Shown here: in pieces, positions 1 to 61,750 of the stretch
How positions within the stretch are numbered: the stretch's first letter is position 1
How the letters are laid out: every line of letters begins with the position of its first letter
Source of the DNA: a virus
Taxonomy: Duplodnaviria; Caudoviricetes
DNA: 64,000 nucleotides
Strand: one strand, 5' to 3'
IMG/VR virus record: IMGVR_UViG_3300020048_000083
Location: 19,785 to 83,784 of that record
The notes under the pieces: model-generated
The model's database searches: none
What the model was told of the DNA's origin: nothing
What the model saw: the letters and a program-made list of their open reading frames with translations, nothing else
Program-made: the position numbers and the translations under genes

Positions 1-858
1 TAATACAATTCTACTTTTGTTATAAATAAATTTAGGTATGTACACACTAAGTGCGCAGTCTATGTAACGCTTGCCGTCTTTAACTGACTCCCAATCCAAG
101 TAGTATGTTTGTTTTACGAACTCGGAAGAGTAATATTCATCCACAGTTGTATTGATTATGGTATGGGTAACTGGTAGTATATTTTGAAGACTAAACGCAT
201 CCAGAAACATATGCACGTTAGTTTTATTCAGGTAATAAAAATATTGTATCTCAGTAAATGATCGTCTACCATCGTTTACTGATACACCTGGAAATGGAAC
301 ATAATCAGTAGCACCTGTTGTAACAGCCCCGAGCGTTGGCTCCAAAGTATTTGTATAGTCTTGAGTTAAATGCGACGGTGGTAAATAGTAAAGAAAACCC
401 TCTGCGGTATTTCCGCTTGTGGTCATACCCGTATGCCACATATTGCGACCGCCCAATACTATTGGCTTCTCGAAATATTTGTCGCCGTCTGACTCTTTAT
501 ACGAAGTCAGTATCTCTTCAACTGGTTCCACTGTCGGGTACCGCCATACTGGACTACGTAAGGACATTAGATTGGTAGATAACGTTTTTCGTGGAATAAT
601 TTGATTACGATCAACCGTACCGCGAAGGTTTAGTATGTGTCCGAGCGTAGGTAAAGTTGGTGAATACGTACCACCGCTCAACATATCATAATTATACGTC
701 AAGCCGCTGTATACTAAATAATTGGCGCCAGAATCGCTAATTGAAAAGTATTTTGTACCATCAATTAATCCGCGATTGTAAAATTTTTCAACTCCAAGCG
801 GGGTTAAATAAACCAACATATCGTATTCCGTCATACCTGTTGTTTTCTCGAAACCCAT
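1..858 (-). CDS. Putative virion structural protein, partial (runs off window start)
   Basis: Not in ORF track. ATG at 858 next to the stop of the 883-aa gene; hand translation MGFEKTTGMTEYDMLVYLTPLGVEKFYNRG... stays open to base 1 (286 codons); 6 [ST]GxT motifs. Confidence 0.75.
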   Translation of the reverse strand, partial: MGFEKTTGMTEYDMLVYLTPLGVEKFYNRGLIDGTKYFSISDSGANYLVYSGLTYNYDMLSGGTYSPTLPTLGHILNLRGTVDRNQIIPRKTLSTNLMSLRSPVWRYPTVEPVEEILTSYKESDGDKYFEKPIVLGGRNMWHTGMTTSGNTAEGFLYYLPPSHLTQDYTNTLEPTLGAVTTGATDYVPFPGVSVNDGRRSFTEIQYFYYLNKTNVHMFLDAFSLQNILPVTHTIINTTVDEYYSSEFVKQTYYLDWESVKDGKRYIDCALSVYIPKFIYNKSRIVL

Positions 859-859
859 C

Positions 860-3511
860 TTAAAAGTCTATTACAGCATTGATTATCTGAACATCACTAT
901 TCAATTTTCGTTGTAACGGCTGGCTGAATTTACCTACCGCAACAACATTACCCTCGTCGTCGTAAACATCTACCTCGGTAAACGCTACCTTGTGAATGTT
1001 TTCGTTAAACGTTGGGTTATTCGATTTAATATACCTATTCGGAAGAACGGTCATATTCATAATCGATTTATAAGTTGTTGATTTTATTTTGGTATTAAGG
1101 TTGCCGAAAAAGAAAGTTTCATCACCAAATGTTATACCCGTGCTGCTTAACGTCGGTATACGAATAAAGTCCTGAAGCCTATATAGGTCGGTAGCCTGAA
1201 CAGCAAACGTCTGGTCATTAAGTGTAACCCTAAGGTCATTGACCTGAATAGGTTGATAGTCTGTTTGTACTACAACACTACCACCACCCGTATTATTCAA
1301 ATACAGTATGGTTATACGGGAGCCCGCTACAGGAATAAAATTATATATAACCCTATAAGGAAAACCAAGATTTACGCCAGCAACTACTGAATACATTGTA
1401 TCGTTCAATACAAGTCCATTATAGAACAGGTATACGTCGCCGTCAGGGACTTCATTTAGGTCAGAATAATAGTTACCACCACTCGTATAAATATCCCCAG
1501 TTGACGTGATGGTTGTAGGTACAAATATATCTTGTCTTATTGTGGTAGCTAAGATAACGGTGCCGATCAGGTAGCTAAACTGAAGTATATCACCAACAAC
1601 TAAATCGGTTGTTGTACCACCCGATAAACCGAAGAATATTTGGTCGCCAGACTGTACATAGTCACCGCAACTTGTACACCCAGTATTAGTATTTATGTCG
1701 CCGATAGTTGCAGCTTCTTTCAATACTAAACCGCCGAAGTTAGCAGCCTTTTTACGGGAAACAATAACATTGCCAATCGGCGTGTGCGTAAGGTTGTATG
1801 TAGTCTTGGATATATTGCTTACAACAACCGATTCAACAAATAATTCATAATTATTTGTTGTCGGCATAGCGATAGGTATACACCCGTTAGAGCCTATATA
1901 CGCATTAGCACTAAAGTAGTACCAGCTATCGGCATCGGGGCGGCTACCCTTATCAGTTTTTTGTACAATAAGTATGATATTATCGGCACTAAATCCCGTG
2001 CCGTCTGAACGCCTTTTAAGGTATGGAAACTCACTATACGTAGGGTCTGTAGAATCATTAGGGAACCTAAACAATACATCGGCGGTATCCTTATCGGTAC
2101 CTATACTTGCATAGTCTTCACAGTGTACACCAGTGAACCCGTTAACACTATCAATAAGTGCATATGTAACGTGTAATTCTTGGTCTTTGGTTATAACCCC
2201 AGCTGAACCAGAACCTGAGCACCTTCCAGCGTCCATATCCTGTAATATTGGTTTAGGTAATGTCCAGTTCCTGTTGGATTTCAACGACATAGCAGTAATA
2301 AGCTCTTCGTTTTCAATAACAACAATCTTCAGGTCTATGAATACTTTACCAACCGCTGTAGGTATTACCTCGGCATCTACCAGATCATAGTAACGTAAGT
2401 TGCCAGCCCAGTATTTCAATGTAGTATCGCATACAAATGTATACCCGATTGTATCGCCGAATCCAGCGCCGCCAAATTGCTTCTTATGCCACATTAATGT
2501 TGGTATATATAGCTCAAGAGTGGTTGAATAAAAGCCCTCTGCATAGTAGTTGTTAACGGTATTGTTGGTATAGTGTATTATACCCACTTTGTCCTGATGG
2601 TGGTTATCGGCGGCATATCGAAGGTATGGATATAAACCCATATAATTGGTGCCGATAATATGATCGTGACCCTTATACGTTACATGATCCAGCCCGACTA
2701 TATCCGATACATAGAATACATTCATATTCCACATAGGTACATCGTGTGAACCATTGCTGCAAGTATCAGTGAAATCAAGTAATCCCTGTGACCAGTAAGC
2801 GGATGGGTTAGACTCGTCAAACACATCTTCGATCATATTGTTCGCATAGAAATATGCATATCCCGTACTACCAGTAGTAGACCCCGTAAGGTTTAAGTCT
2901 GGTAATAACCTATCTACACCAACCGTAAAACCAGTGGCTGTGCTTCCCGTAATACTTGTAATTTGATACCATAGATACGGCACCGCATCATCGTCTATAA
3001 CCCAAGGCGAAAGTGTACCAGTATACCCAGTTTTAGGATACTTAACCAGCATAAGGTCGCCAATGGAAGGGGTAAGACCGCTTGGGTTTATCGGGGTTCC
3101 TGTAATTGTTGAACCAGCCTCATATACTATATCTATCGAAGTTCCGCCAGTAATATTTTCCTGCGGAACTGCGTAACCACCACAAAGTGTATAGCCAGAC
3201 ATTATAGTACTACCAGTAAAGAAACCTCGCTCCTTGGCATCAGCATACTGAACCATAGGGTATGATACAATAGACGTAATAGGTAAAATGTAATTGGTTC
3301 CCTCGCTGGGGATTAAATAGGTTGCAGCGGGTTGGTTATCGGCTGGGCGAAGTATATTCAAATACTCGGTATTGTCATTTGTGTACACCATTTCCCCATC
3401 ACTTAACGAAAAATTAGTGAACTTCAATTGCCCGATAGATAGTTGTTCCCTACCTTTGTCAGTTAACTTTACGTTAACCAATGGTTCTGTTTTTTTAATA
3501 ATATAACTCAT
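860..3511 (-). CDS. Virion structural protein (baseplate-region), 883 aa
   Basis: Long ORF in the baseplate block; Thr/Gly-rich beta-type sequence; C-terminus VAFTEVDVYDDEGNVVAVGKFSQPLQRK of a type common in large-phage structural proteins; TATTTATG box 14 nt upstream. Confidence 0.6.
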   Translation of the reverse strand: MSYIIKKTEPLVNVKLTDKGREQLSIGQLKFTNFSLSDGEMVYTNDNTEYLNILRPADNQPAATYLIPSEGTNYILPITSIVSYPMVQYADAKERGFFTGSTIMSGYTLCGGYAVPQENITGGTSIDIVYEAGSTITGTPINPSGLTPSIGDLMLVKYPKTGYTGTLSPWVIDDDAVPYLWYQITSITGSTATGFTVGVDRLLPDLNLTGSTTGSTGYAYFYANNMIEDVFDESNPSAYWSQGLLDFTDTCSNGSHDVPMWNMNVFYVSDIVGLDHVTYKGHDHIIGTNYMGLYPYLRYAADNHHQDKVGIIHYTNNTVNNYYAEGFYSTTLELYIPTLMWHKKQFGGAGFGDTIGYTFVCDTTLKYWAGNLRYYDLVDAEVIPTAVGKVFIDLKIVVIENEELITAMSLKSNRNWTLPKPILQDMDAGRCSGSGSAGVITKDQELHVTYALIDSVNGFTGVHCEDYASIGTDKDTADVLFRFPNDSTDPTYSEFPYLKRRSDGTGFSADNIILIVQKTDKGSRPDADSWYYFSANAYIGSNGCIPIAMPTTNNYELFVESVVVSNISKTTYNLTHTPIGNVIVSRKKAANFGGLVLKEAATIGDINTNTGCTSCGDYVQSGDQIFFGLSGGTTTDLVVGDILQFSYLIGTVILATTIRQDIFVPTTITSTGDIYTSGGNYYSDLNEVPDGDVYLFYNGLVLNDTMYSVVAGVNLGFPYRVIYNFIPVAGSRITILYLNNTGGGSVVVQTDYQPIQVNDLRVTLNDQTFAVQATDLYRLQDFIRIPTLSSTGITFGDETFFFGNLNTKIKSTTYKSIMNMTVLPNRYIKSNNPTFNENIHKVAFTEVDVYDDEGNVVAVGKFSQPLQRKLNSDVQIINAVIDF

Positions 3512-3537
3512 TCTACCTATTTTTCATAAATATTTTA

Positions 3538-6500
3538 TTATTCCGATTGCGTTGTAATTACTGCTTGGGCTTGCGAAGTACTTACTGTATTAAACTTAAT
3601 CACAGACGCGTTGCTTTTTACATTTGTACATAATAGCATGTAAATAGTAACAAAGTTGCCGCATGGGTCTTTAGCAGTTAACCTACCAATAAATTCTCCT
3701 GTAATCGGGTACCCAGCTAAATCCTTTGCGAAATCATAAACCAGATGTATTCCATCCGATTCATATTGAGCAGTCGCAGACCCATAGGCAAATACTTCTC
3801 TGGACGTTGCGTCCGACGCCGTATAAAACCTATTGATAGGGTCATCAAAAAAGTATTTGTTATACCCGTCCCTGAAATATAAATACCCATCTTTTTTATA
3901 AAACGCGACCAGTAACTGTTCCAACCTACTATCTATTCCAGTAACATCGCTTTCGTAAACTTTTACATAACTTTTACGCATAATACTATACGTTGTGCCA
4001 GTTAATGTGTTAGATTGATCTGGAACTGGTGTTCCGTTATCTGTATAACCAGTCCATGTGACGCCTGTAAATGGTGCTGGTAATTGATATACACCGTAAA
4101 GAAAAGCATTGCCATTATAAAACTGCGACCTATCAATGGCGTTCGACATTAATGTTATGGTTCTACCAGTATCACTAATAGTTTTACCAGAAACAAACGC
4201 CATATAATATTCGTGTTCAAAATCATAAACTTCTGTTGGCGCCGATGTATGACCAGATACACCACTCGGCGTAAATCTTATTGTGTCATATACATTATTA
4301 ATCATATATTGATATGTGTCGCCAGTAAACATAGTATAAACCCATTTACTTGTCATACCATCCCATAACTTATCGGCTTTAAAGTGAGAGTATGTGGAAG
4401 ATGTTGATCCACTCAGCATATACCCGCCAACACAGTCAATACGCTCTTCCTTTTTAAATGCACAATTAAAAGATTTTGGTTGTACTGTCAAATATATTTC
4501 ATCGTTAATATAGTAAAACCCTTCAAATACATAATCAAGAGTTCTACTTTGTACGGTTGAATACGAAGAGTTCGCAGAGCCGCCAACAATATACGATTTT
4601 TGATTGTAAACAAACCCATTAGCTCCCATTAATTTAATTATAACAGTCTGTTCAGTATCAATATCACTGTTATAAATTAAAGAAGCTTCTACTTTGATTA
4701 AATTATATCTGTTAACAATAAGGTAATTGTTATTGGTTCTATTAGCCAATGAAACAGTCGGTAACTCTGTATGGAAATCATCTGGTATATGATGATGTGT
4801 AGACGTATACCCACTATCTGCACGCAAATACTCCCAATTGGAGCCATAGCTATTGATAATCGGAAGTCGTGTATTTACATTTTTAGGACACGGTATATCG
4901 TCCGTTCCTACATTGGCATAAATACCATATACAGTTTTTGACGAGTAAAACGGGCCTAACCCTGCTAGCGTAGAGCCAGTGAGCGGGTAGAAACCTTCAA
5001 ACTGAAAATCCAAAGCCCCGCTCATAAATAATTGGTTTTCTATCGTCGACCCGCGCGGCGTAATACAAAGCGTCGGTAACGTAGTGCCAGTTAAATAAAA
5101 CTGGTACCCAAGACCACAAGTTTGAGTTAAATTAATATCAATTGTAGAATTGGTAGTATCAAGATCGAACTTATCTACATAAGTTGTATTCACATGCATT
5201 AACGGCGTAGTCATACCAGTAGTTAAACCAGACCTATTACCAACATACTGGTCATACATACCCGAAACATCACCAGTTTGACCCGTCATTCCAGTGGGAA
5301 TAAATGGAATAGCCCAAGCCCCAGCTGTACCCCCAACGGCATACTCTGGCGCCAAAGGGTTAGTGTTCATAGAGTAACCAAATGCATGCGGTTGTTTATA
5401 CCAAAATAATACACCGCTATCGCTAATGTAATACGCGTCTACCTTTGCAAGTACGAAATTAGAAAGGTTAACAGTATAATTAGCAGTAAGTGGTGTTTCA
5501 TTCTGAATAACAACAACCGTTTCGGTACTAGCTGATATTGACGTCGGGTAATAATAACACTCAAACTTAGTTTTTCCATGAGTTAAATCACCCTTAAATT
5601 TAAAAGGGTATGACGCTAATGTTTCGTTATTAATATCATTACAAAACGGGTGGACATAAATAGTTGGTTGGTCTTGGTAGTCTATAGCTGATCCAGTATA
5701 AATTATATCTAAATCATAACTGCAATAATACAAAGTATCTTTTTCTGGCGTGGTTGTATACGTGTTATTTCGCATACTGAATAGTTTAATACCATTGTTT
5801 ACAGATTCATCAAACAACGCTGTAGCTAAATCCTCGGTTACACTAAAGTCTATCTGGTTAGGGCTAAGCGGTAACATCCAGCTTGTTGTCGCAAAAAGAA
5901 ACTCTGGGTTTGTTATCATGCCAGTTAATAATGGGGCTCTGTATCCATCGTAATCATAATAACATACATGTGGCAGGGGCGGCGGAGTTATGAAATTAAT
6001 ATTTGTAGGTGATTTAGTAACCTTAAAGTCTTTTAGCCTTAACGTACATTCACCAGAATAAGAAACATCCTTAGCTAGAATACCTATGTGTACGTGTTGT
6101 TTGTTAGTCCTAAATTTAGTTTTTACGTGAATCCAATTGTACTTGTCATACAACTTTGCGCCAAAACTACCTTCCATTAAATCCCTATCCGTAACATAAC
6201 CATCTGGCGTTGTAGAACCAGTAAATAGCGGCATAATACCGACATACGAGTAAGCAGTGTTACCAGATACTTGCGTATCAAACATTATATCGCATTCAGC
6301 TTCATAATACTCATTGGCATTTATAGGAACATTCCGCAAACCGAAGACCATTAAATCTATTAATGGGTATAATGTATCGCCTGACGTAGGCAACGCTGCG
6401 AGTACTATTTTTATGCTACCAGTTGTACCCGTTGATACTAAACCAGCATAATACCCTACACCCAAATTTTCATCAAAGGTTACACCAGAAGTTGCCGTTA

Positions 6501-9297
6501 TAATATGTGCACCAGAAATATCTGTACTACCAGCTATAGATGCTATGGTAGGGAAATACATGTAATCTGTTGTTGTAGAAGACGTCATACCAGTAGTGGT
6601 ACCATAATTAGCATGCGCGGCTTCCAGCACGTTTTGCTGGCTCGCATAATGTCGGTAGAAGTCATAACTGTCTGCACTGAAATAGCCGCCTCTGGTTAAA
6701 TATGAATGAGCCTTATCAGATAGTTTAGCCTGTGTGAGAAAAATTATATTATTTCCATGCAGGTCTGGGCTTAATACACCGTCACAGTGAAATACGTCCA
6801 AATAACCGCTTGGGGACGGCTTCAGGGCTTCATCTTGGAATTCTGACCCATCTGTACCAGTCCAGCCCGTAGAGCTCCTTAAACCGTGCTTATACTGAAA
6901 TTTTGTGGTTGTTATATTTGCATTAGCATATTTTCTCCCAGCAAGAAAAATTGTTGTGGCTGGAATAAATTGTTGAAGTAACTTAACCCAATACGTATCA
7001 AACGTATTCATAAAACTTAAAGTCTTAACATAATCTATGGCTTTAAGGTTTAAAGTACCTGCATAATTCAGGTAATCCCAGTAAATTTTACTTAATACTG
7101 GGTATGTTTTTATAACCTTTCGGTTCTTAGGGTCGACCAGTTTACTGGTTATCTCCCTGATGTAATCATTGAACGTTAACTTAGAAGGTTCAACCGTCGC
7201 AGTAGACGTAGATATGTCATAATCATACTTGTTGTAGAATGAATACACATAATAATCTAACGTCATCTGGCTTGAAATAGCCGCGTCAGCCTCTTTCGAG
7301 TTTATGACCAATCGGCTATCCTTGATAATGTAATTGGTATCGCGAAGTAAAAAATCGTAGGACTGTTGAGTTTCGCCCGTAACTACTACCCAAGATTTTT
7401 TATTGTCTATGGTGCGATTAAGATCAAACGCTTTAATAGCACCAAACTTGCGGAACGTATCTAAATAGGTTTTACCGTTATCATAAGCTCCTATGTTTTG
7501 CGCGTTATTGAGCATACTACCACCATTAGCCTGAAAATATGTGTACGGCGGCGTTGTCGGATACCCGTCTGTATCAATAGGGTAATCGGTTATACTTTGA
7601 TTGAATATATTGTATAGATCATCGTATGGTAACTGGTGATCGGCAACATAAACATACTCGTTTATATCCATAATTTCCAACGGAATACCGACCAATTCTA
7701 ATGCAAATTCGATAGATTTTCTTGTACCCTTGGACTTGAATAAATAGAATGAGTTAATGATAATGCGGCGCCATAGCTCTATGTCTATTTCCGCTGGTGT
7801 ATCATCGCCCTGCCTATCAGCCGAAACGTCAAACAGCGACTCGATTAATGTGTCGTCCTGTTCAATCTCATACGTCTTCCAGCCAAGCATATGCGCAAAG
7901 TTTTTCAGTAAAACATCGGGCACGTTGTCAAGCTTATCGTAAGATACTTTTGTCATATACGATATACCATCGGCATACTTCTTTACATTGTCGAACATAG
8001 CCCCGTATGTCTGCCACGTAACATATGTTTTACGCTCAGGTGTATCAAACTCCTGCAAAGACTCGGCGGTTAAGAACCTCGAAATAAGGTCTGTTTTGAA
8101 CCTGTCAAACTCGTCGGCAATGAACTGAAGATCGGTTGTATATTTATCGAACGGGTCGTTAAAAATATCCAAATTGTAATCATCATACATCGGGAATCGC
8201 ATTGTCTGCGGTATAATTTGGAACGTACCATCTTCCAGTCGGTGCGGAACATCCAATACGGCGGTATATAGTGGGTTACTCTTAGGGTTTAGTAAGTATG
8301 CCGTTAAATCCGACGTTGTAGAATAAAAATCATCCCACACCTTCTTTATCGGCTTGATATAAAAATTAGTATTTGCGGTTCCATTGACAGAAACAACGGA
8401 AGCAAATGGATCACCCTGTACAATAAGAACCAGCCCGTTAGGGTCATTCCTACGCGTAGGTAAAACGACGCTTACAATCTGGTACGATGCCCCGTTGTAA
8501 TATACTTCATATTTTTTATAATTCTTAGCAAAATTACGCAACGGAGATATATATTCCTGCTGAGTTGCGGTTAAACCCGTCTTGTAGTAATCTATGGTAA
8601 ACGGGTTGTTTATGGTAGCTATGCGTACCTTGAACATAGCCGATCTACCCTCGTTCTGTGAAAAATAATCGAATACCGATGTTTCTGTAATAGAAAACGG
8701 TACAACGTGCATAGACGCTGGGAACGTTTCTGCGATTTCTTGTAAGGTAACACGAAATCTTTCCGATAATGACGCGTATGTAACATACTTTTCAAGATTA
8801 GATTTATCAAACCTAACCTTGGCTGTCACATTTTGTGTTACCTGAGCCTTTAGAGCCTCAATGCCGTCAAACGTAAAGTCTAAACCAACATAACCCTTTT
8901 TACTGTCAGCCAGAGTAAATATAGCGTCCTGTTTTTGGTTAATACTTGTTGTAATAGTAAAGTTACCAAGAGTAAAGATAGGATCACCAGCAACAGCGTC
9001 CGTCTGTGCAAATTGGTACCCGACTAACTTATCACCAAAAACCTCTTTACCCTGCGCCACAATCTCTCCCTGATGAATAGTGAGTTGCGTAGCCTGCTGG
9101 TAATCGGCGGCAGTAGCACAAGGTATGTACTTAATTGTACCATTTACCAAATATGCCCGATACCCGTCAAAGCCCCAGATTTTAGCTTGGTTAACGGCTT
9201 CTGCGGCTGTATCAAACATATACTCCAACAGTGGGTCTGTTGAGTATGTGGTTTGGTTTACCATACTAAAATCAATACTCCCTAAATCAGTATTCAT
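3538..9297 (-). CDS. Large baseplate wedge protein (gp7/P2 gpI-like core plus long C-terminal extension), 1919 aa
   Basis: Central motif LLKNFAHMLGW...ELWRRIIINSFYLFKSKGTRKSIEFALELVG resembles P2 gpI/T4 gp7 wedge domains; downstream of gp6- and gp25-like genes. Confidence 0.6.
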   Translation of the reverse strand: MNTDLGSIDFSMVNQTTYSTDPLLEYMFDTAAEAVNQAKIWGFDGYRAYLVNGTIKYIPCATAADYQQATQLTIHQGEIVAQGKEVFGDKLVGYQFAQTDAVAGDPIFTLGNFTITTSINQKQDAIFTLADSKKGYVGLDFTFDGIEALKAQVTQNVTAKVRFDKSNLEKYVTYASLSERFRVTLQEIAETFPASMHVVPFSITETSVFDYFSQNEGRSAMFKVRIATINNPFTIDYYKTGLTATQQEYISPLRNFAKNYKKYEVYYNGASYQIVSVVLPTRRNDPNGLVLIVQGDPFASVVSVNGTANTNFYIKPIKKVWDDFYSTTSDLTAYLLNPKSNPLYTAVLDVPHRLEDGTFQIIPQTMRFPMYDDYNLDIFNDPFDKYTTDLQFIADEFDRFKTDLISRFLTAESLQEFDTPERKTYVTWQTYGAMFDNVKKYADGISYMTKVSYDKLDNVPDVLLKNFAHMLGWKTYEIEQDDTLIESLFDVSADRQGDDTPAEIDIELWRRIIINSFYLFKSKGTRKSIEFALELVGIPLEIMDINEYVYVADHQLPYDDLYNIFNQSITDYPIDTDGYPTTPPYTYFQANGGSMLNNAQNIGAYDNGKTYLDTFRKFGAIKAFDLNRTIDNKKSWVVVTGETQQSYDFLLRDTNYIIKDSRLVINSKEADAAISSQMTLDYYVYSFYNKYDYDISTSTATVEPSKLTFNDYIREITSKLVDPKNRKVIKTYPVLSKIYWDYLNYAGTLNLKAIDYVKTLSFMNTFDTYWVKLLQQFIPATTIFLAGRKYANANITTTKFQYKHGLRSSTGWTGTDGSEFQDEALKPSPSGYLDVFHCDGVLSPDLHGNNIIFLTQAKLSDKAHSYLTRGGYFSADSYDFYRHYASQQNVLEAAHANYGTTTGMTSSTTTDYMYFPTIASIAGSTDISGAHIITATSGVTFDENLGVGYYAGLVSTGTTGSIKIVLAALPTSGDTLYPLIDLMVFGLRNVPINANEYYEAECDIMFDTQVSGNTAYSYVGIMPLFTGSTTPDGYVTDRDLMEGSFGAKLYDKYNWIHVKTKFRTNKQHVHIGILAKDVSYSGECTLRLKDFKVTKSPTNINFITPPPLPHVCYYDYDGYRAPLLTGMITNPEFLFATTSWMLPLSPNQIDFSVTEDLATALFDESVNNGIKLFSMRNNTYTTTPEKDTLYYCSYDLDIIYTGSAIDYQDQPTIYVHPFCNDINNETLASYPFKFKGDLTHGKTKFECYYYPTSISASTETVVVIQNETPLTANYTVNLSNFVLAKVDAYYISDSGVLFWYKQPHAFGYSMNTNPLAPEYAVGGTAGAWAIPFIPTGMTGQTGDVSGMYDQYVGNRSGLTTGMTTPLMHVNTTYVDKFDLDTTNSTIDINLTQTCGLGYQFYLTGTTLPTLCITPRGSTIENQLFMSGALDFQFEGFYPLTGSTLAGLGPFYSSKTVYGIYANVGTDDIPCPKNVNTRLPIINSYGSNWEYLRADSGYTSTHHHIPDDFHTELPTVSLANRTNNNYLIVNRYNLIKVEASLIYNSDIDTEQTVIIKLMGANGFVYNQKSYIVGGSANSSYSTVQSRTLDYVFEGFYYINDEIYLTVQPKSFNCAFKKEERIDCVGGYMLSGSTSSTYSHFKADKLWDGMTSKWVYTMFTGDTYQYMINNVYDTIRFTPSGVSGHTSAPTEVYDFEHEYYMAFVSGKTISDTGRTITLMSNAIDRSQFYNGNAFLYGVYQLPAPFTGVTWTGYTDNGTPVPDQSNTLTGTTYSIMRKSYVKVYESDVTGIDSRLEQLLVAFYKKDGYLYFRDGYNKYFFDDPINRFYTASDATSREVFAYGSATAQYESDGIHLVYDFAKDLAGYPITGEFIGRLTAKDPCGNFVTIYMLLCTNVKSNASVIKFNTVSTSQAQAVITTQSE

Positions 9298-35980: not shown

Positions 35981-36030
35981 ATCCGTAATATAAATATTTT
36001 ACGCTGAAATTCAAGCGTTGTTTATTGATT

Positions 36031-42003: not shown

Positions 42004-42004
42004 T

Positions 42005-44626: not shown

Positions 44627-44634
44627 AGTTTATA

Positions 44635-46074
44635 TTATCTAAGAAAGTTATTACGAACAAGAACCTGCTTGCTCTGATCTTCTGCATTAATTTTTCTGGC
44701 ACGGCAGAACTCTATTAAGGCTGGAACATCAATATTTTTAACGTCCATACTTGTAATAGTCGAAGCGTCATACCCGCGAGTACCCGAACTGAATCGAACC
44801 GTTAAATACTTGTTTGTAAACATACCAGAAACAAGCTTTCCGCCAGAAACGTTTAAGTTGCCGTCTTCTATAGTAATACCCGAATCGGGTTTATTTTCCA
44901 TAAGCCATTTTATTACGATAATCGCTGGTGTGTTTTCAACCCCGCCTTTAAGTGGAGTGTACCATTCACCTTCCTGTTCATCGTCTGCATTAGGCATCGG
45001 ACTTAATCCATATTTGTGTCTGATATTATTAAGTTTATCTTGTTGATATTCAAAACTACCAACGGCGCCAGCAATTTTACGTCTTACTTTTTCATCCTTT
45101 GGAATGCTACCGCTTACAGGTTGAAAAAATATATTAGGGAGTTTAAGTAATCCTTTAACCTCTTCTGTTGCCTGAGGTATAAATTCAGCCATTTTACCGA
45201 CTAAGTTAATATCTGGAATGGTTGATTTTTTTACCACGTAAACTTTACCACCCGTATAAACCCATACAGTATGTGGCATTTGTTTTATTTCTTCAAGAGT
45301 TTCCACTATCCAAGGCGGGTTTTTACCGTTATTAATTCCATCAATAATTTCCTGAGAAAGAAGCGGGCTATCCGAGTCTAATAAAACCCGACCCGTAACC
45401 ATTGTTCCGTTCTGGAAAAAGGTTAAATCTTGATTGGATAAATCCTGCCCGTCGTATGCGCTCGGTTCGTGCTTGTTTAATTGAGCCTTGGCAATACGCT
45501 GCAACTCTGGTACTATTTCTTTCATAGCCTGAACCAGTTCGGTTAAACCCTGCTGCGCTTCCAATTCGTCCACGGATTGTGCTGCCCTACCTGCTGTAGC
45601 CACCAAATTTTGTTTGATATCGTAAAGGTCGGTTGATATAGTATCCAATACACTATGTGACCCGCTGGCGTGCTGTTCTATTTTTTCCATAACACCCAAT
45701 AATTGGGTCAATGCCTGAACAACCTGTGGGTTATCATTTTGGTTTGCAGTATCATCAATCTTTTGTGCTAATTGTGGCGCGTTTACGCCAAGCGCTTTTT
45801 CAACGGTAGATAGAAACCTTTTAGGGTTTTTAAAAATACTTTTACCTATCTGAGCCATTTGTGGATTATTTGCGGACTCAGCACCAAATACATCAACAAT
45901 GAACTTGATTACTTTATCTGAAACGGTAACGCCTTGTTCCGCATAAAATCGCTTAACTTCGTCATAGAAGTCTTCCATTGATTGAAACCCCTGCTCTTCA
46001 GCTTCAAATAACAATCTGGCGTAGTTAGAATTGAATCTTCTAACGTTTTGTAGTGTGGTATCTAAGTTTATCAT
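44635..46074 (-). CDS. Hypothetical protein, possible head-internal protein, 479 aa
   Basis: Long ORF; N-terminal RLLFEA fits an L-x-E prohead-protease site pattern; ATATTTATT upstream at 46092-46100. Confidence 0.55.
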   Translation of the reverse strand: MINLDTTLQNVRRFNSNYARLLFEAEEQGFQSMEDFYDEVKRFYAEQGVTVSDKVIKFIVDVFGAESANNPQMAQIGKSIFKNPKRFLSTVEKALGVNAPQLAQKIDDTANQNDNPQVVQALTQLLGVMEKIEQHASGSHSVLDTISTDLYDIKQNLVATAGRAAQSVDELEAQQGLTELVQAMKEIVPELQRIAKAQLNKHEPSAYDGQDLSNQDLTFFQNGTMVTGRVLLDSDSPLLSQEIIDGINNGKNPPWIVETLEEIKQMPHTVWVYTGGKVYVVKKSTIPDINLVGKMAEFIPQATEEVKGLLKLPNIFFQPVSGSIPKDEKVRRKIAGAVGSFEYQQDKLNNIRHKYGLSPMPNADDEQEGEWYTPLKGGVENTPAIIVIKWLMENKPDSGITIEDGNLNVSGGKLVSGMFTNKYLTVRFSSGTRGYDASTITSMDVKNIDVPALIEFCRARKINAEDQSKQVLVRNNFLR

Positions 46075-48745: not shown

Positions 48746-51700
48746 TTAAAAACTATCGAAAGATACGTTTGTTGGCGTAACTGTGAATTCCAAATCGATA
48801 ACCTCAAGTGCTGGTGTAGGCTTCAGGTAAATTTTACCACGAAGTGTATTTCTATCGTCACCGTCAGCCTGCGGTTCCAGTTTTACCCTGAAGTCGATAA
48901 GACCACGCTCTTTGCGGATATTATCAAGTATTGGGTTAACTGCTGCAAGGAAATCTGTTCTGATTGTATCATCGTTCGGGTCGAACAGTAATCTGTTACC
49001 AACCTGACCAATGAGTTTTTTGGTCTGCAACAGGAGCCTACGGATATTAAGCCTATTTAGAGCGCTGTTAGCGACCTGAAGGTTCCTATTACCCCAGATA
49101 GCCACACCAATATCACTAAAGGTCGCCAGCGGGTTAATTCTGCCCTTATACAGGATATCTCTGTAGTCCTGAGTCAATTTAATACGGGTTCTCTTAGCAT
49201 TAACCAAACCACGTTTGTAACCAGCGGAAGCATACCATGGGTGAGCCACGTTATCAGTTAAGGCAAGGTTACGAACAACGTCAACCGTAGGTGAAATAAA
49301 CAAGTTGGTTGAGTTGTCGGCGTCGTATATCTGGTACCAAGGGTAGAATACAGCTGCGTAGTTACTATCAATATCAGTTCCTTCCAGTTCCGATACTATA
49401 TCACGCGGGTAGTACCAATCGTCGGTATTTGCAGGCGAGTTGTTGTTCAACAGCTTGATATCAGGTAACGTCGGCAAATAAATTGCGTCTTGACGTTTTT
49501 CTTCGATAATTTCAAGTGCGTCACGAACCAAGTCGGTGTTATTCAACAGGTCAATACCTGGCGTAGCCAAGATATTAATGTTAACGTCTTCAGGGTTTTC
49601 CTGACTTTGTGCACCAATTTGGTAAGCGTAGTAGTCGGATGTTCCGTAGTCGTCGTCTTTACCCTGAATGTTGAAGGTAACGAATCCACCAGCAACGTAT
49701 CCAGCGCGACCAATTTTGTAAGGGTCGGTATTGGTACGTGAGTTACGGAATATATCCCAGCCGTCGAATCCACCAGCCAAGAGGCAAGTAAATTTACGTG
49801 TACGGATATCCGAGTATGGTTCGGTAGTATCTGTGGTTAGAGCAACATTGTCAGTAAACTGTCCAACACCAACTGCGAATACAGAGTCACCGTTTGAATC
49901 CAAGATGCTTGCGGCATTCATATCCATATGGAAACCTTTTGTACGTCCGCCCCACTCTGAGCCTTGACCCCAAGTAGGTGTTCCGCTCATACCTTTGAAT
50001 TGTAAAAAATCTGGATCAAGACCTACGGTATCAGAGAAACCTAAGTAATTTTTCCTTACTTTATCACCACTCGAAATAACTGGGTCGCCGAACGGCGGCG
50101 TGTAGATAGTTTCGCCAGCGGCGTAGTATTTCAATTTGTATCCTAATTCAGGAACCCCGATTGAAGTGGCAGTCCTGTAAGAGAATCCTTCGAAACCAGC
50201 TGGTACAGCGGTTGTAGGTGCGAATTCGTCGAGCTCAACCATTACGTATGCACTCTTCAAGTCGAACATATTGTCGATTGTACCAATTTTCTTACCAACG
50301 AAATCGTCGGAAGATGGGTTCATATTGCAACCAAGGAATCTTTCAACTAAAACAACGTTTCTGTCAACGTCGCTGTATCGGCGTATGTAGATATCGAACG
50401 TTTTAGTATCCAAGCTAACGTTGGCTATAGAAACCTTAATTTCAGTGTTCGCGGTATTACCATCAGAAATGCTAACCAAACGGAATAGCCTCTGCGGTAA
50501 TCCACCTCGGAGCTCAGAAACAAAGTACGGAGTCATAGGCGTCTGGTACTGGAATTTGTAGTGTGAATACGTGCCAGTAACTTTAATTGTAGGGTGTACA
50601 CCTTTAATCTTTCTGTTATTATAACCTTCTTGCAGTACGGTCGGGTAGAAACTTTCAACGTAAAGATATGAGTCTTTATCAGTTGGCGTAACCCCAAGCA
50701 CCTTTTTAATGTAGTTTGTGCTTGTTGAATCCAAGTTAACCGTGTAATCATAAGTAACACCAGATGTAATTGTGGTACCAGTGATATTAAAAGACGCGTA
50801 TGGGTCAACAATAACGTCAGTAGTATTAGTAAGCGCTATAGTAGGTGACGGAACATCAGCATACCTGTAAAGTACGTCGCTTGAATAGAAACCTCTACTA
50901 CGTAAAGTTGCAACTTCTTTATTGTGGTACTCTAACAATGGCGTACCAGTATAATTTACCACAGTAAGTGTTGTTGTACCAGTAGTAAATCCACTTCCGC
51001 TAACGCCGATGGTATTAGGGTCTACGTAGAAGTTAAAAGCCTTTCCAGTATATGTATCGCCCGTAAGGTTAGTAACCAGTATAAATGTATTAACTAGCCA
51101 ATGTTCATTTTCAAATGACGGGTCAATATCACTTGGCAGTTCGTAGGCGTCAGCCTGAGTTCCACCTGTGGTCGCTAGATCAAACGCGGCTTGAACATCT
51201 GTTGGTAAAGTTCCCCAGTATACGCCGTTTCCATCCGTAGCTCCTGTACCGTTACCATACCAAGGGTAAGGCGAACTGGTCATCCTGAAGTACGTGTTAA
51301 ACGCGTCGTCAAATTGGGTTTTATCGATACCGATTAAGGTTTCGAACTCGTCAATTAAATCAGTAGATGAGTCCAACACTTTGAATGTTCCGCTGCAATT
51401 AGCGCAAAAATCGATGTCATAGGTTATAGGCGTCGGATAAGTTAATGTCGATTGATCAACGTTACCAATTGTACGTAGCACATACGCCATACCAGCATTA
51501 AATCCAGATAGTCCAAGAACTCTGGTTACATACAGCTGATTGGTTTGCGATAAATACGATTTGGCAATATAAGCCAGCTCATATTTAGGGATTTGTGTAC
51601 CTTTGTATTTTGTCGGATCGGTGCCCCCGAACATAACCTTGAAGTCGTCCCAATTTTTAATAAAAATGGGCTGCATTGCAGGGCCCTTCAGTGCTTCACC

Positions 51701-51799
51701 AACTAACCCTAATGTTGTTACGCCTATTACCTCGGTTGAAAAAGTGAGGTCTTTTTCGGTCATATAGACGCCTGGAGAGTCATAAACTTTATTTGCCAT
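48746..51799 (-). CDS. Tail sheath protein (T4 gp18-like) with large insertion, 1017 aa
   Basis: SPGVYMTEKD, YVTRVLG, NILATPG, PWYASAG, LYKGRINPL, IWGNRNLQ...LNRLNIRRLL, IYLKPT...IDLEF. Confidence 0.95.
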   Translation of the reverse strand: MANKVYDSPGVYMTEKDLTFSTEVIGVTTLGLVGEALKGPAMQPIFIKNWDDFKVMFGGTDPTKYKGTQIPKYELAYIAKSYLSQTNQLYVTRVLGLSGFNAGMAYVLRTIGNVDQSTLTYPTPITYDIDFCANCSGTFKVLDSSTDLIDEFETLIGIDKTQFDDAFNTYFRMTSSPYPWYGNGTGATDGNGVYWGTLPTDVQAAFDLATTGGTQADAYELPSDIDPSFENEHWLVNTFILVTNLTGDTYTGKAFNFYVDPNTIGVSGSGFTTGTTTLTVVNYTGTPLLEYHNKEVATLRSRGFYSSDVLYRYADVPSPTIALTNTTDVIVDPYASFNITGTTITSGVTYDYTVNLDSTSTNYIKKVLGVTPTDKDSYLYVESFYPTVLQEGYNNRKIKGVHPTIKVTGTYSHYKFQYQTPMTPYFVSELRGGLPQRLFRLVSISDGNTANTEIKVSIANVSLDTKTFDIYIRRYSDVDRNVVLVERFLGCNMNPSSDDFVGKKIGTIDNMFDLKSAYVMVELDEFAPTTAVPAGFEGFSYRTATSIGVPELGYKLKYYAAGETIYTPPFGDPVISSGDKVRKNYLGFSDTVGLDPDFLQFKGMSGTPTWGQGSEWGGRTKGFHMDMNAASILDSNGDSVFAVGVGQFTDNVALTTDTTEPYSDIRTRKFTCLLAGGFDGWDIFRNSRTNTDPYKIGRAGYVAGGFVTFNIQGKDDDYGTSDYYAYQIGAQSQENPEDVNINILATPGIDLLNNTDLVRDALEIIEEKRQDAIYLPTLPDIKLLNNNSPANTDDWYYPRDIVSELEGTDIDSNYAAVFYPWYQIYDADNSTNLFISPTVDVVRNLALTDNVAHPWYASAGYKRGLVNAKRTRIKLTQDYRDILYKGRINPLATFSDIGVAIWGNRNLQVANSALNRLNIRRLLLQTKKLIGQVGNRLLFDPNDDTIRTDFLAAVNPILDNIRKERGLIDFRVKLEPQADGDDRNTLRGKIYLKPTPALEVIDLEFTVTPTNVSFDSF

Positions 51800-56886: not shown

Positions 56887-56899
56887 GTTGCTATTTTAT

Positions 56900-56949
56900 T
56901 ATAAATATTAGTTAATAGTTAATGTTTTACGAGTAACAGAATATTTATA
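56900..56949. promoter_or_regulatory. Back-to-back TATTTATA boxes in a divergent intergenic region
   Basis: Minus-strand TATTTATA at 56900-56907 (13 nt from ATG 56886) and plus-strand TATTTATA at 56942-56949 (15 nt from ATG 56965). Confidence 0.6.
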
Positions 56950-56964
56950 AAAAAAAGCTTCAGT

Positions 56965-58059: not shown

Positions 58060-58081
58060 TAAATTAAACAAAATTGAAACA

Positions 58082-60070
58082 ATGTTGATATTACGAAATG
58101 CCTTAGATCGTCCTTTAAGTTGGGATGAAATGGATCACAACTTTGAAGTATTAGAGATTAATGCGTGGGTTAAACAAGGGTACGAAAAAAACCAAAAATG
58201 TTTCGTGGTAGACGGTAGCTATACAACGATCTACAACTGCGTATGCACGCATATACAAGAAGCTTACGAGCCAGCTGACGTGTTTATCACCACGTATGGC
58301 GCAACAACTATATGGGAGCCTATTTCAAGCACGTATAATGGTCAGCCGTCAAACACTGATATTTATGTTACTGGTATGACGTATAACTCGGCTATGAGTG
58401 GAAATACGCTTACCGTACACCAAACGCTTGGGTATCCAGATGTATCTGTTTTTGTACCTTCTTACGCTCTTTACGACCATTATGTTAGCAACTTTACGTT
58501 AACGGGCACAACTTTATACATATATAGAACGGGCGGGCAGCCTACCTTAACGGTAGATTTACAACCGATTATTGATATTTCAACTGGTATAACTTCAACA
58601 AATACGTACGTAACTGGCGGAACACTAAATAATTCTAATTATCATTTATACCTCAGCCGTAACGATGGAGTAATTGTTGATATTAATTTATATGCGCTCC
58701 ACGACCCAGATATTTACACAACTGGAGCAACGTTAAATGGTAGTATAGCGACGTTCAGAAAGAATGCGGGCTCGCCGTACACATTGGATTTATCATCTTT
58801 AGTTGTGACGGGTTCCACTGGTTCTGGATATAGTGGGTTTTCGGGTTATTCTGGTATAGATGGGGCGTCTTTAGGGTCTGGATATTCTGGCATATCTGGC
58901 TATTCTGGCTATTCTGGCGAAAGTAACGTTTCTGGGTATTCGGGTATTTCTGGTTGGTCTGGTTATTCTGGTTGGTCTGGTTATTCTGGGGCGGCTGGTA
59001 GCTCTGGATGGGCGACAGACCCCGAATTGATTTATGATCCATTAGCAAATATATTATCCGTTCCTAATATTGAAGTTGGTTCTGGATACTTTAAATATTT
59101 GGATGGTAATCAGGCTTCAGGGTACGTATTAACCTCAAATGCCAGCGGTGTAGCATATTGGTCGGCTGGCGGAGCTGGCGCGTCAGGATATTCTGGTATT
59201 TCTGGGTATTCTGGTACTGGCGCGTCAGGATATTCTGGTATTTCTGGGTATTCTGGTACTGGTGCAAGTGGGTATTCTGGTTTAGGTTCAGCTTTAACCA
59301 TAAACAATAATGCGGACAATAGAATGTTGACAGCTAACGGCGGAACGACCTCTATTGATGCTGAAACTGGTATGACGTACAATAATGGGTACATTACAAA
59401 TACAGCCAATGCTCCAGTCACTTTAGAATTAGATAGCTATCATTCAACCACGGCGGTGCCTAACTTTGTTATTGTTCGCGGTCGCGGAACGCCATCGGCA
59501 AAAACAGCCGCAATGACCAACGATATAATTTATGAAGAAATAGCTTATGCTATGTATGGGGTCGGTACGACTAACACATCTATTACCATGTATAAAGCCA
59601 CGCTTCAACTAAAGAGTGACCTAAATACAGCAAACCCTACCATATCTACAGAATATATTCTACAAACCCGAAACTCTACCCCAGCGGTGGATCAGATGGA
59701 TAATAGGTTAAAAATAGATACGGCGGGTGATCTAACAGTTTACGGTGGTCTTTATGTGGGTCGTCAAGTAAGTTTACCCACAGAAGTTTTTAGCAGTAAT
59801 ACAACAGGTAGTACTGGATTTTCTTATCTTGGTGAACCACCAGCATCTACAACCATAACATTCACTTTACCATTAGCCAGTAGTTTTCGAGGTAGGGTTT
59901 ACTATATAGTAAAAAATATTACAAGTAGTGGCACTTTAAGTATTGCATCAACTGGCGGAGATACTATTGCTTATCTATCCAGCCCGCAAACGCTAGCAAC
60001 GAAAGGTAAGTTTGCTATGCTACAAAGTGATGGTATAAGTAACTGGATTCCGTTAAGCATTAGTTTATAA
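58082..60070 (+). CDS. Fibre/whisker-like virion protein with Ser-Gly-aromatic triplet arrays, 662 aa
   Basis: N-terminal LRNALDRPLSWDEMDHNF fibre-type start, two SGYSG arrays, C-terminal FTLPLASSFRGRVYYIVKN fibre-type domain. Confidence 0.65.
   Translation: MLILRNALDRPLSWDEMDHNFEVLEINAWVKQGYEKNQKCFVVDGSYTTIYNCVCTHIQEAYEPADVFITTYGATTIWEPISSTYNGQPSNTDIYVTGMTYNSAMSGNTLTVHQTLGYPDVSVFVPSYALYDHYVSNFTLTGTTLYIYRTGGQPTLTVDLQPIIDISTGITSTNTYVTGGTLNNSNYHLYLSRNDGVIVDINLYALHDPDIYTTGATLNGSIATFRKNAGSPYTLDLSSLVVTGSTGSGYSGFSGYSGIDGASLGSGYSGISGYSGYSGESNVSGYSGISGWSGYSGWSGYSGAAGSSGWATDPELIYDPLANILSVPNIEVGSGYFKYLDGNQASGYVLTSNASGVAYWSAGGAGASGYSGISGYSGTGASGYSGISGYSGTGASGYSGLGSALTINNNADNRMLTANGGTTSIDAETGMTYNNGYITNTANAPVTLELDSYHSTTAVPNFVIVRGRGTPSAKTAAMTNDIIYEEIAYAMYGVGTTNTSITMYKATLQLKSDLNTANPTISTEYILQTRNSTPAVDQMDNRLKIDTAGDLTVYGGLYVGRQVSLPTEVFSSNTTGSTGFSYLGEPPASTTITFTLPLASSFRGRVYYIVKNITSSGTLSIASTGGDTIAYLSSPQTLATKGKFAMLQSDGISNWIPLSISL
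58820..59282 (+). repeat. Coding (S-G-Y/F/W/I)n arrays including a perfect 42-bp tandem duplication
   Basis: Arrays at ~58820-59007 and 59177-59282; GGCGCGTCAGGATATTCTGGTATTTCTGGGTATTCTGGTACT at 59177-59218 and 59219-59260. Confidence 0.88.
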
Positions 60071-60079
60071 AAATATATT

Positions 60080-61750
60080 ATGAGGTGGACACAGAAATAC
60101 ATTAATTTTTTACTGGATGGCTCAGAGTATTACGACTTTGAATTAGCCACCGAAGGTACGGCTATGTATGGTATTTCACTATACGACGATGACGCGGTGA
60201 TTGATATCAACGTGTGCTCTGGTTTTACGTCCACTATTCGATGGTCTGGTGCCACTATGGAAGCGTTCACCTTGGACTTTATTACCACAACAGGATTGGA
60301 CAACTACTTTGTTGATATACCAAATGCGTACAGTGGTGGAACCATAGATACGAGGATCGCTGCCAATTATACCGACGACGAATACTTTGAATTTCACCCC
60401 GTATCTGGGTGGTCAACCAATATAAGTTATGAAATACTTCCGATATCAAACTGTGCCGTCAAATTAAACGGCGGATTCTACCAAGGATTCTTTAAATTAT
60501 ATGAGTACCCATATGAAATGATGCCTTCCCGTATGCGAAAAGGTTGGACAGTTGACATGATTGTGGGGTATCCTGACGGAAAGTCAGGAACAGGAACAAC
60601 ACTGAATGACTTATTTGCTAACAATGGCGGATTTATATTTTATTTGGGTACTCGCGGCGAAGATAAATACTGGAATGGTTTTACCACTGGAGCCACTGGC
60701 GAAGAAACTATTCTGTTCAATTGGTCTGGCTTAACGGTCACCGATCCGCGGTATTTACAGTATTACCAATTCGCCCCAACAAGCGCTGGTAAAACACCTT
60801 CGCTCGACCCACTGAACCCGTCATTTAACGACGGCAATGTGTACGGTGGATATACACTCGGATATTCTTATGGTCTTGGGACAACTTCCGAAGGTGAACC
60901 ATTAAACTATAGTCCATTATTCACTCAGGGTGATGAATTTGTTACCGTCCGCATAATCAATGGCGGAGTTAGTGGTGGTACAAGCGGTAAAACTACCTAT
61001 GAATCATACGATTACAAAGGTTATTATCATTACACGAACCATTTACCGTATGCTGAAAGATATTTCGACGATAATACTATTCCTTTATATGTAAAATACC
61101 CATGGAAAAGTATTACGGATAATGCGTTCGGGATTAGAATTCGCCCAGACGGTCATATTGGTTATAGGGTATTAAGAATCGGGAATGTATGCCAAACTGG
61201 TACTACGACAAATATTGACGGGTCAATAACAGGAACTACTACGCCGATTTATCAACTGGAAGAGTCGTATTCCGCCAGCCCGATATACACGGCTGGTGAC
61301 AATGGCAGCATTAACATCACAATAGTCTTTGAGCGCTACATAGAATTGAACGATTGCGAGCTTATCTATAATGATTATCGAAAGGGAACGCTTACAATTT
61401 ACGTTAACGCTAGACCAGTATTTCGCGAAGAAAATTTCGAAGAAATTATACCGCACGCTTTAGATAGACAAAAGGAGTTACAAAACGGAGTGCCGTTTAA
61501 TATTTCGTGGGGCGGCGGAACTCAGGGACTTTTGGAATCTGTTACCTTTGGCGGAATAGACGCACCAGACAGAAATTTACTTTTACAAAACTTTTTTGCT
61601 GGATCGTTTACTGGATCGCTGCAAACATTCAAAATGTACATACGCCCGCTACACGTGCCTCAAATAATTCACAACTTTGAGTTACGAAAAGCCCAGTATA
61701 ATATGCTTGGCGATTTTGGTGGCAGGTATATATTTATAACAAGAGCTTAA
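60080..61750 (+). CDS. Virion structural protein, possibly LamG-like, 556 aa
   Basis: Beta-rich; C-terminal GTLTIYVNARPVF...FNISWGGGTQGL...FTGSLQTFKMYIRPL resembles a LamG-type ending; 10 [ST]GxT motifs. Confidence 0.55.
   Translation: MRWTQKYINFLLDGSEYYDFELATEGTAMYGISLYDDDAVIDINVCSGFTSTIRWSGATMEAFTLDFITTTGLDNYFVDIPNAYSGGTIDTRIAANYTDDEYFEFHPVSGWSTNISYEILPISNCAVKLNGGFYQGFFKLYEYPYEMMPSRMRKGWTVDMIVGYPDGKSGTGTTLNDLFANNGGFIFYLGTRGEDKYWNGFTTGATGEETILFNWSGLTVTDPRYLQYYQFAPTSAGKTPSLDPLNPSFNDGNVYGGYTLGYSYGLGTTSEGEPLNYSPLFTQGDEFVTVRIINGGVSGGTSGKTTYESYDYKGYYHYTNHLPYAERYFDDNTIPLYVKYPWKSITDNAFGIRIRPDGHIGYRVLRIGNVCQTGTTTNIDGSITGTTTPIYQLEESYSASPIYTAGDNGSINITIVFERYIELNDCELIYNDYRKGTLTIYVNARPVFREENFEEIIPHALDRQKELQNGVPFNISWGGGTQGLLESVTFGGIDAPDRNLLLQNFFAGSFTGSLQTFKMYIRPLHVPQIIHNFELRKAQYNMLGDFGGRYIFITRA

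Follow-up and report, generated by a model that had tools for sequence, protein, structure and literature searches.

The tetrapeptide [ST]-G-x-T recurs in a subset of the virion proteins encoded on a 64,000-nucleotide stretch of viral DNA (hereafter the window; G000:C1:19785-83784). The window forms the right end of a virus contig 83,784 bp long, IMG/VR record IMGVR_UViG_3300020048_000083, which has a completeness rating of 26%. By Pfam and PHROG matches it carries the genes of a T4-type contractile tail and baseplate (sheath, tube, gp6-like wedge subunit, hub). Replication genes are present as well, namely those for ribonucleotide reductase, a DnaB-like helicase, an exonuclease, a UvsX-like recombinase, a single-stranded DNA-binding protein and an SNF2-type helicase. 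No close relative was found among GenBank phages, the best sheath match being Microcystis phage Mel-JY01 with 28% identity. One metagenome scan for a longer copy of the window phage gave short contigs only, the best of which (L145) is 58% identical. The features needed below are listed with their [ST]GxT sites (window coordinates; aa, amino acids).

1..858, minus strand: first 286 codons of a 392-aa protein, extending past the window edge and adjoining the gp10-like gene; 6 sites versus 0.7 expected
860..3511, minus strand: 883-aa predicted gp10-like peripheral baseplate protein; 12 sites versus 1.4 expected, 9 of them at residues 99-216
3538..9297, minus strand: 1919-aa putative baseplate wedge protein; 24 sites versus 2.4 expected
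3990..6594, minus strand: C-terminal extension of the wedge protein, residues 902-1769, poorly conserved between lineages; 20 of the 24 wedge sites
16785..18611, minus strand: gp6-like baseplate wedge subunit (phrog_6, E 1e-19), inner control; 0 sites
28901..46074, minus strand: five inner tail and baseplate proteins (1480, 777, 1990, 873 and 479 aa); 2 sites in 5,599 aa
47649..48140, minus strand: tail tube protein (phrog_4542, E 2e-20), inner control; 0 sites
48746..51799, minus strand: 1017-aa tail sheath (phrog_23, E 1e-51; PF17482); 7 sites versus 1.5 expected
50753..51247, minus strand: sheath residues 185-349, part of the 160-352 insertion; 7 of the 7 sheath sites
58082..60070, plus strand: 662-aa tail fibre with a collagen-like G-x-S stretch; 9 sites versus 2.3 expected
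60080..61750, plus strand: 556-aa probable receptor-binding protein, lectin-like; 10 sites versus 0.9 expected

The assignment of the 1919-aa protein to the baseplate wedge is suggested by gene order and weak similarity. The roles of the five inner controls at 28901..46074 come from the initial annotation and gene order, PHROGs giving no match, and a 105-aa open reading frame (ORF) within that span (window 35663-35980) was excluded from the count.

A tetrapeptide is enriched in six virion proteins

The initial annotation of the window had counted [ST]GxT by hand in six proteins and proposed it as the sequon of a virion modification. All of its counts (6, 12, 24, 7, 9 and 10) were reproduced exactly, giving a total of 68 sites, and its rough estimate of ~8 expected against ~60 seen is borne out by whole-protein shuffles, which yield 9.1. 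It had named shuffled controls as one check on this excess. The excess persists: shuffling in blocks of 10, 20 and 40 residues raises the expectation to 13.0, 10.6 and 10.0, respectively, with z = 16-19 (lowest about 16), and whole-protein and block shuffles together span z = 16-21. Block shuffling controls for local richness in Thr, Gly and Ser. Moreover, eight permuted or re-spaced controls (among them [ST]xGT, G[ST]xT and TxG[ST]) occur at or near chance. In an unbiased scan of all three-residue patterns in six shapes, TG.T ranks first in the window set; SG.T and TG.T rank first and second in three of four relatives, whose protein sets had been picked by the motif.

The six replication proteins hold a single site, the SGKT of the RecA/UvsX Walker A motif, just as had been annotated. 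The inner virion proteins are likewise motif-poor, although the earlier figure of ~1 site in ~5,700 aa becomes 2 in ~6,200 aa (1480, 777, 1990, 873, 479 and 608 aa). The ORF at 1-858 does carry six sites, but the 286 aa given for it are a fragment: it is cut by the window edge and measures 392 aa in the contig, its remainder adding no further [ST]GxT. A weaker excess is seen in the ORFs at 10217-10825, 12741-14621 and 55103-55696.

The signal is specific to the reading frame, with 68 sites in frame versus 1-3 in each of the other five. Each of the four codons for Gly and each of the four for Thr occurs at the sites, as do codons of both Ser families. Because of this frame specificity and the use of all synonymous codons, selection acts at the protein level. 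The recurrence in non-homologous proteins that had been claimed holds, BLASTP showing no similarity among the six. A shared domain or duplication was rejected: among 12 proteins, the sole BLASTP match was a 29-aa N-terminal peptide of two other ORFs, and Pfam, PHROGs and PDB sequence searches found no domain common to the motif proteins.

One might suspect an artefact of composition or repeats, given the Thr- and Gly-rich composition of the proteins, the collagen-like G-x-S tract of the fibre and a low-complexity 2,370-aa protein in the relative G003; or else a word at the DNA level such as a restriction or recombination site. Codon diversity and the empty alternative frames speak against any DNA word. 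A z of 16 after 10-residue shuffles, the permuted motifs at chance and the lack of BLASTP similarity among the six proteins speak against composition and repeats. Both were excluded on these grounds, and the probability we leave to such an artefact is negligible.

Residue specificity

Within the six window proteins, enrichment at position 1 is limited to Ser (6.0x) and Thr (8.5x) and at position 2 to Gly; [ST]AxT, [ST]NxT and [ST]DxT each occur at 1.0x. At position 4 Thr reaches 7.4x and Ser is also enriched, to a lesser degree. A clade-wide set of 125 enriched proteins (131,887 aa) gives the same picture: S and T 6.8x, D 1.5x and N 0.9x at position 1; G 6.8x and A 2.4x at position 2; T 6.8x, S 1.3x, V and I 0.7x at position 4. 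Substitutes are correspondingly poor, with DGxT at 0.6-1.5x, NGxT at 0.9-1.3x, [ST]GxV at 0.4-0.7x and [ST]GxI at 0.5-0.7x.

Position x had been described as free. This is correct, yet the list of residues given was incomplete (F, I, C, E, W and Q also occur) and Pro is never found there in the window. In the clade set Pro at x scores 0.6 versus 3-14 for the other residues, and over all sets analysed Pro lies at 0.1-0.6x. The residue before the motif (position -1) is preferentially V, T, M, W or F in 1,127 partly de-replicated site contexts, and charged residues are depleted at -1, at -2 and two residues past the motif Thr. Our working consensus is (hydrophobic)-[ST]-G-{P}-T. It has what characterises a sequon, being short and ordered, strict in its acceptor-type residue and free at one position except for Pro.

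Known sequons do not account for the signal. The Bacteroidota motif D-[ST]-[AILVMT], from which [ST]GxT had been said to differ, is indeed distinct, with 21 observed versus about 25 expected. The N-x-S/T sequon was rejected, N-x-[ST] not being significantly enriched (z about 1.6-2.0).

Distribution in the clade

The gp10-like family comprises more than 1,297 uncultured members, and the 120 listed average 7.6 sites versus 1.2 expected. The 556-aa family, which is unrelated to it, has 1,105 members, the 120 listed averaging 9.1 versus 0.84. Loci with a gp10-like gene (70 in IMG/VR, identity as low as 26%) show a 3-7.5x excess in 68 cases; the exceptions are L004 (2.6x) and L092 (1.3x), and a search for relatives of the motif-negative L092 record found the record itself only.

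Four near-complete relatives of 217-321 kb and 27-35% GC content were analysed, namely G001 (320,934 bp, rated complete), G003 (287,855 bp, with terminal repeats), G004 and G005. The excess holds across 27% to 40% GC. In G001 the excess is carried by 8 of about 314-351 ORFs; the rest hold 49-50 sites versus 46-47 expected (two ORF calls). Among the enriched proteins are the gp23 capsid protein, the sheath, the wedge and gp10-like proteins and collagen-like fibres, together with a conserved protein of 469 aa and the homologue of the 556-aa protein.

Three phages outside this group lack the signal. T4 virion proteins hold 18 sites versus 12.2 expected, the whole Mel-JY01 proteome holds 41 versus 44.8 with no ORF enriched, and the structural block of Flavobacterium phage immuto holds 35 versus 21.8, with 0 in the capsid protein and 2 versus 1.3 in the sheath. 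All three being at or near chance, a general trait of T4-like surface proteins was rejected, and the excess in homologous sheath, capsid and wedge proteins is found inside the clade and not outside it. Judged by these counts, the motif is a property of the whole clade and not of one phage.

Location of the sites and predicted structures

As initially annotated, all seven sheath sites fall into an insertion (residues 185-346 within the 160-352 stretch) and the wedge sites are mostly C-terminal, 20 of 24 lying at residue 902 or later. The sheath stretch 160-352 does not align to the sheaths of G004 and Mel-JY01; T4 gp18 aligns to the window sheath at residues 738-1017 only. In the wedge protein the N-terminal ~950 aa are collinear with the homologues of G001, G003 and G004. 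Its C-terminal extension is absent from the shorter G003 and G004 homologues and aligns poorly even to that of G001. The gp23 proteins of relatives have their sites confined to a hypervariable middle region (residues 135-283 of 551 in G001), with none in the conserved HK97-fold core. Insertions of this kind face outward in T4 gp18 and gp23, and by analogy the motif-bearing insertions would do so here.

The 883-aa protein was modelled by AlphaFold2 with a mean predicted local distance difference test score (pLDDT) of 85.8. Foldseek matched the model to a T4 baseplate chain (5iv5_AC, probability 0.93), to phage KP1 (9f4b_FA, 0.97) and to the N-terminus of CBA120 TSP4 (0.60), these matches being local with about 300 aligned columns. 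By similarity of the predicted fold to T4 gp10 the protein is gp10-like. Nine of its 12 sites lie within the variable N-terminal region. Some longer homologues (P0045, P0049, P0053 and P0075; 1,220-1,270 aa) have a C-terminal delta-60 repeat/WD40 beta-propeller fused to them (PF17164, PF00400), which suggests swappable distal binding modules.

For the 556-aa protein the mean pLDDT is 71.4 and the model shows concanavalin-A-like lectin/LamG jelly-roll folds, with Foldseek matches to CBM40, pentraxin, heparin lyase I and neurotoxin Hc domains at probabilities of 0.96-1.0. On this model it is probably a receptor-binding protein. An identical copy is recorded on a 200,472-bp contig. The homologue of the 662-aa fibre in L145 has 15 sites. 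Motif sites are dispersed and mostly outside the collagen-like tracts.

The restriction to regions that probably face outward, together with the presence in lectin-like and fibre proteins, would also be expected if the unmodified motif itself were a ligand-binding or adhesion element contacting polysaccharides or ions. However, enrichment is equal on capsid and sheath, which are not expected receptor binders, and four residues with a free x, no fixed context and no conserved positions make a poor binding site. We regard such a function as quite improbable.

Exposure was judged from secondary structure and domain position. The two models contain 22 sites, of which 16 fall in coil or on a coil/strand boundary, one forms a two-residue hairpin, one is inside a strand and four have a pLDDT <50. 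The main rival to a modification starts from this observation: the motif could be a clade-specific structural micro-motif of loop-to-strand junctions and tight hairpins in beta-rich decoration domains, with no enzyme involved. Gly-containing turns are common in beta-sandwich proteins. Most modelled sites are at coil/strand boundaries where the Thr of position 4 often starts the strand, the hairpin is S85-G-G-T88 of the 556-aa protein, and the loops of the gp10-like model reach a pLDDT of 80-94. On the other hand, the secondary-structure contexts are heterogeneous, and the behaviour of generic beta-turns or ST-turns was not found. Turns and strand starts normally tolerate Asp/Asn at position 1 and Val/Ile at position 4 as substitutes, but neither exchange is enriched here, and the beta-rich proteins of T4, Mel-JY01 and immuto, including homologous sheath, capsid and wedge proteins, show no excess. 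Nor does a structural role explain why unrelated folds share the motif within one clade.

Turnover of the sites

In an alignment of 109 gp10-like sequences, 819 sites are spread across 122 columns, and only 8% of the sites are in columns with the motif in at least half of the sequences. Among close homologues (58-95% identity), for which the alignment is safe, many sites are kept; S and T swap at position 1 while G and T are fixed and x changes freely. The entropy of x is about 2x that of positions 1, 2 and 4 in close homologues of the gp10-like family. Sites come and go by single substitutions (SGWS to SGWT, DGKT to SGKT, NGSI to TGST), and lost sites turn into unrelated residues including Pro (TGCT to PTEP, TGIT to APIT). 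The local fold can hence do without the motif.

Site density co-varies between the wedge protein, the gp10-like protein and a roughly 620-aa protein, which are non-homologous neighbours (Spearman 0.51-0.69, n = 18-20). The L140 lineage (P0057), 60% identical to a motif-rich homologue and nested among motif-rich relatives, is poor in all three, with 5, 1 and 3 sites versus 28, 17 and 14 in G001. Co-varying density and the depletion in L140 point to a factor acting in trans on many proteins.

For the structural micro-motif, the several sites kept among close homologues are a further point in favour. The replacement of lost sites by unrelated residues, Pro among them, in alignable sequence and the simultaneous scarcity of the motif in three proteins of a whole lineage are not what it predicts. 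Overall, we consider a purely structural origin unlikely.

Candidate enzymes

The initial annotation had seen no glycosyltransferase in the window. This agrees with our searches: PF00535 is negative on the whole 83.8-kb contig, and no transferase appeared in Pfam/PHROG scans of 30 window ORFs, scans that covered the window and not the 19.8 kb upstream of it. Its suggestion to look for transferases elsewhere met with success in the relatives, where they are clade-core genes, and not on the window's own contig.

Between the sheath and gp23 genes of G001 lie genes for a 408-aa GT-B glycosyltransferase (RfaG-like by Atlas features and structure, with weak Pfam support), a GT2_5/GT4 fusion and two further GT2 proteins. 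The same region encodes a carbamoyltransferase, an FkbM methyltransferase, a HAD and nucleotidyltransferase fusion, a UDP-GlcNAc 2-epimerase and a WavE-like protein. About 15 kb onward follows a syntenic trio encoding a 225-aa unknown protein, a GT-B-like protein of 358 aa and a GT2 of 273 aa. Every one of the 17 searched records with a completeness of at least 38% contains the 408-aa GT-B (39-68% identity), and every one of the 18 with at least 31% contains the pair of 358-aa GT-B-like and adjacent 273-aa GT2; all three are conserved in G003-G005. Hidden Markov models of the conserved clade transferases had no match in motif-negative Mel-JY01. At these completeness thresholds (at least 38% and at least 31%), the searched motif-rich records all carry the GT-B and the GT-B-like family, respectively, and Mel-JY01 has neither motif nor families. 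Synteny with L145 suggests that the GT-B gene of the window phage may be located a few kb past the contig end; L145 itself ends about 2 kb short of the expected GT-B position.

Some transferase homologues are split or have in-frame stops (TAA or TGA), namely those at G037:C1:46238-47365, G015:C1:35889-36944, G031:C1:14881-15708 and G006:C1:101279-101935. These could be decaying genes, sequencing errors or cases of recoding.

A comparison of gene content by BLASTP returned 31 G001 proteins with homologues in G003 and in G004 or G005 and none in Mel-JY01. Three of these are glycosyltransferases or transferase-like, two of them on weak evidence. The contrast is a weak one because Mel-JY01 shares just 12 proteins with all four relatives.

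These data bear on whether the motif might serve another hydroxyl-directed modification (phosphorylation, acylation, nucleotidylation) or a non-catalytic trans factor such as an assembly chaperone. The evidence for a trans-acting reader of two hydroxyls fits these too, and the motif is tied to no particular enzyme. However, no kinase, acyltransferase or Fic-type gene is among the 31 proteins of this shallow comparison, whereas three are or resemble glycosyltransferases, and sugar-nucleotide genes are nearby in G001. A modification other than glycosylation, or a chaperone, appears improbable to us.

A candidate sequon for virion glycosylation

We propose, at a probability of about 0.5, that a clade-specific phage enzyme, likely a soluble glycosyltransferase, recognises [ST]-G-{not P}-T on exposed loops of virion proteins. 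A phage-encoded enzyme would read the motif and modify the Ser/Thr hydroxyl. The first enzyme would most likely be a soluble glycosyltransferase working in the host cytoplasm before or during assembly, and further transferases would extend and decorate the glycan. The result would be a sugar coat on the capsid insertion domain, the outer domain of the sheath, the baseplate periphery, the fibres and the lectin-like receptor-binding protein. We infer the enzymatic reading, the nature of the glycan, the acceptor residue and the role (shielding, stability or adhesion) alike. A wider version, in which this widespread, uncultured clade of aquatic giant T4-like phages runs its own cytoplasmic sequon-directed O-glycosylation and the virion coat is methylated or carbamoylated, is offered tentatively, as we put it slightly below an even chance.

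The modification role assigned initially is thus supported in part: the comparative predictions that were tested for a sequon hold, and no transferase is on the contig. Several points weigh against it. Modification at the motif is a computational deduction and chemically unproven. The window's own contig, being 26% complete, gave no transferase gene in the PF00535 search. Mel-JY01, which is motif-negative, has its own, unrelated glycosyltransferase cluster, so that possession of transferases is not diagnostic of the motif. The 408-aa GT-B adjoins a dUTPase-like gene and could act on DNA. The motif loops of the gp10-like protein are confidently modelled and ordered, with the Thr of position 4 often the first strand residue, a pattern also expected of a structural motif. 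Finally, the apparent positional turnover is partly alignment uncertainty in gappy regions, and the density correlation ignores phylogeny.

In the cultured relative Mel-JY01 a 1,226-aa FkbM-methyltransferase protein adjoins structural genes (L098:4750-8430), and a separate cluster holds four annotated glycosyltransferases (L137:33441-39690).

Comparison with known systems

The N-glycosylation sequon N-x-S/T (x not Pro) of eukaryotes and bacteria turns over in position while its density is kept on viral surface proteins. The motif described here is likewise short and ordered, with a free middle position that excludes Pro, a downstream hydroxyl that is needed and a turnover of sites. It differs by its candidate acceptor hydroxyl and the Gly at +1, and the enzyme would be soluble and cytoplasmic instead of an oligosaccharyltransferase. 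Another lead is BclA of the Bacillus exosporium, a surface filament in which Thr of G-x-T collagen-like repeats is O-glycosylated. Thr after G-x as O-glycan acceptor would be common to both; in contrast to the long tandem triplets of BclA, the sites here are dispersed, with S/T required ahead of the Gly, and most of them fall outside any collagen-like tract.

Bacteroidota O-glycosylation is a periplasmic process, and phage virion proteins stay out of the periplasm. Its three-residue sequon D-[ST]-[AILVMT] belongs to a plausible host phylum and is not enriched here. A Bacteroidota host is suggested by the Fib_succ_major domain of a window protein and, by analogy, by host predictions for a different, possibly unrelated lineage of large aquatic phages (PMC12619734).

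Mycobacteriophage virions are glycosylated by phage-encoded glycosyltransferases (Freeman et al. 2023, Cell Host Microbe, as summarised in PMC12619734). According to that summary, the glycans are at the C-termini of capsid and tail-tube subunits, a shield role has been proposed, and no short sequon is described. Mycobacteriophages have such transferases near their structural genes, and the relatives studied here also carry transferases inside the structural-gene block. In contrast to mycobacteriophages, the candidate sites are scattered over internal loops and insertions, and they imply a defined motif of four residues. C-terminal tails as sites were not found, the tube having 0 sites and those of gp23 and the other proteins being internal. 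Moreover, mycobacteriophages are siphoviruses of actinobacteria, whereas these phages are T4-like giant myoviruses, probably of aquatic bacteria. Virion glycosylation itself is known; what would differ here, though unproven, is the site architecture, the implied defined sequon and the type of phage. Our literature search found no paper describing an [ST]GxT motif or a phage virion sequon.

Other features of the window and its relatives

At 62723-64000 (plus strand) the window encodes an RCC1-repeat beta-propeller protein (PF25390, E 8e-93) that runs off the contig end. The syntenic position is taken by a 1057-aa gene in L145 and a 773-aa gene in G001. The two ORFs with the matching N-terminal peptide encode a 197-aa protein (55103-55696, minus strand) and a 395-aa protein (55699-56886, minus strand). 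They have 29 residues in common (59% identity, E 1e-6) and are unrelated beyond this peptide. It is the 395-aa protein that contains the Fib_succ_major domain.

In G003 the low-complexity protein mentioned above (204879-211991, minus strand; 2,370 aa, rich in Thr, Gly and Ser) has 86 [ST]GxT versus 52 expected. A 2,342-aa protein of G005 (77457-84485, minus strand) shows a periodic I-x-N-G / N-G-x-x-N pattern in 66-74 copies. The PhoH protein of G001 (L022:376-3414; G001 160376-163414) is 1,012 aa long and contains LAGLIDADG and Hom_end homing-endonuclease domains, so its gene appears to be interrupted by one or two inteins.

Significance

Should the proposed O-glycosylation be real, [ST]-G-{not P}-T would be the first protein O-glycosylation sequon to be defined for the virions of bacteriophages. 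Environmental giant phages, which are abundant, would then have virion glycosylation as a designed surface feature, with sites that can be predicted from sequence, and it would no longer be a curiosity of a few actinobacteriophages. The purpose of a glycan coat (protection from proteases, grazers or aggregation; masking; adhesion) would become testable, as would the identity of the soluble transferases that initiate O-glycosylation of proteins and the way in which sequon density changes over evolution on the surfaces of viruses other than eukaryotic ones. Glyco-engineering, too, could make use of such a short, portable O-glycosylation tag and its soluble enzyme. Should the motif be structural instead, it would represent an unusual convergent spread of one four-residue motif over unrelated folds within a single viral clade.

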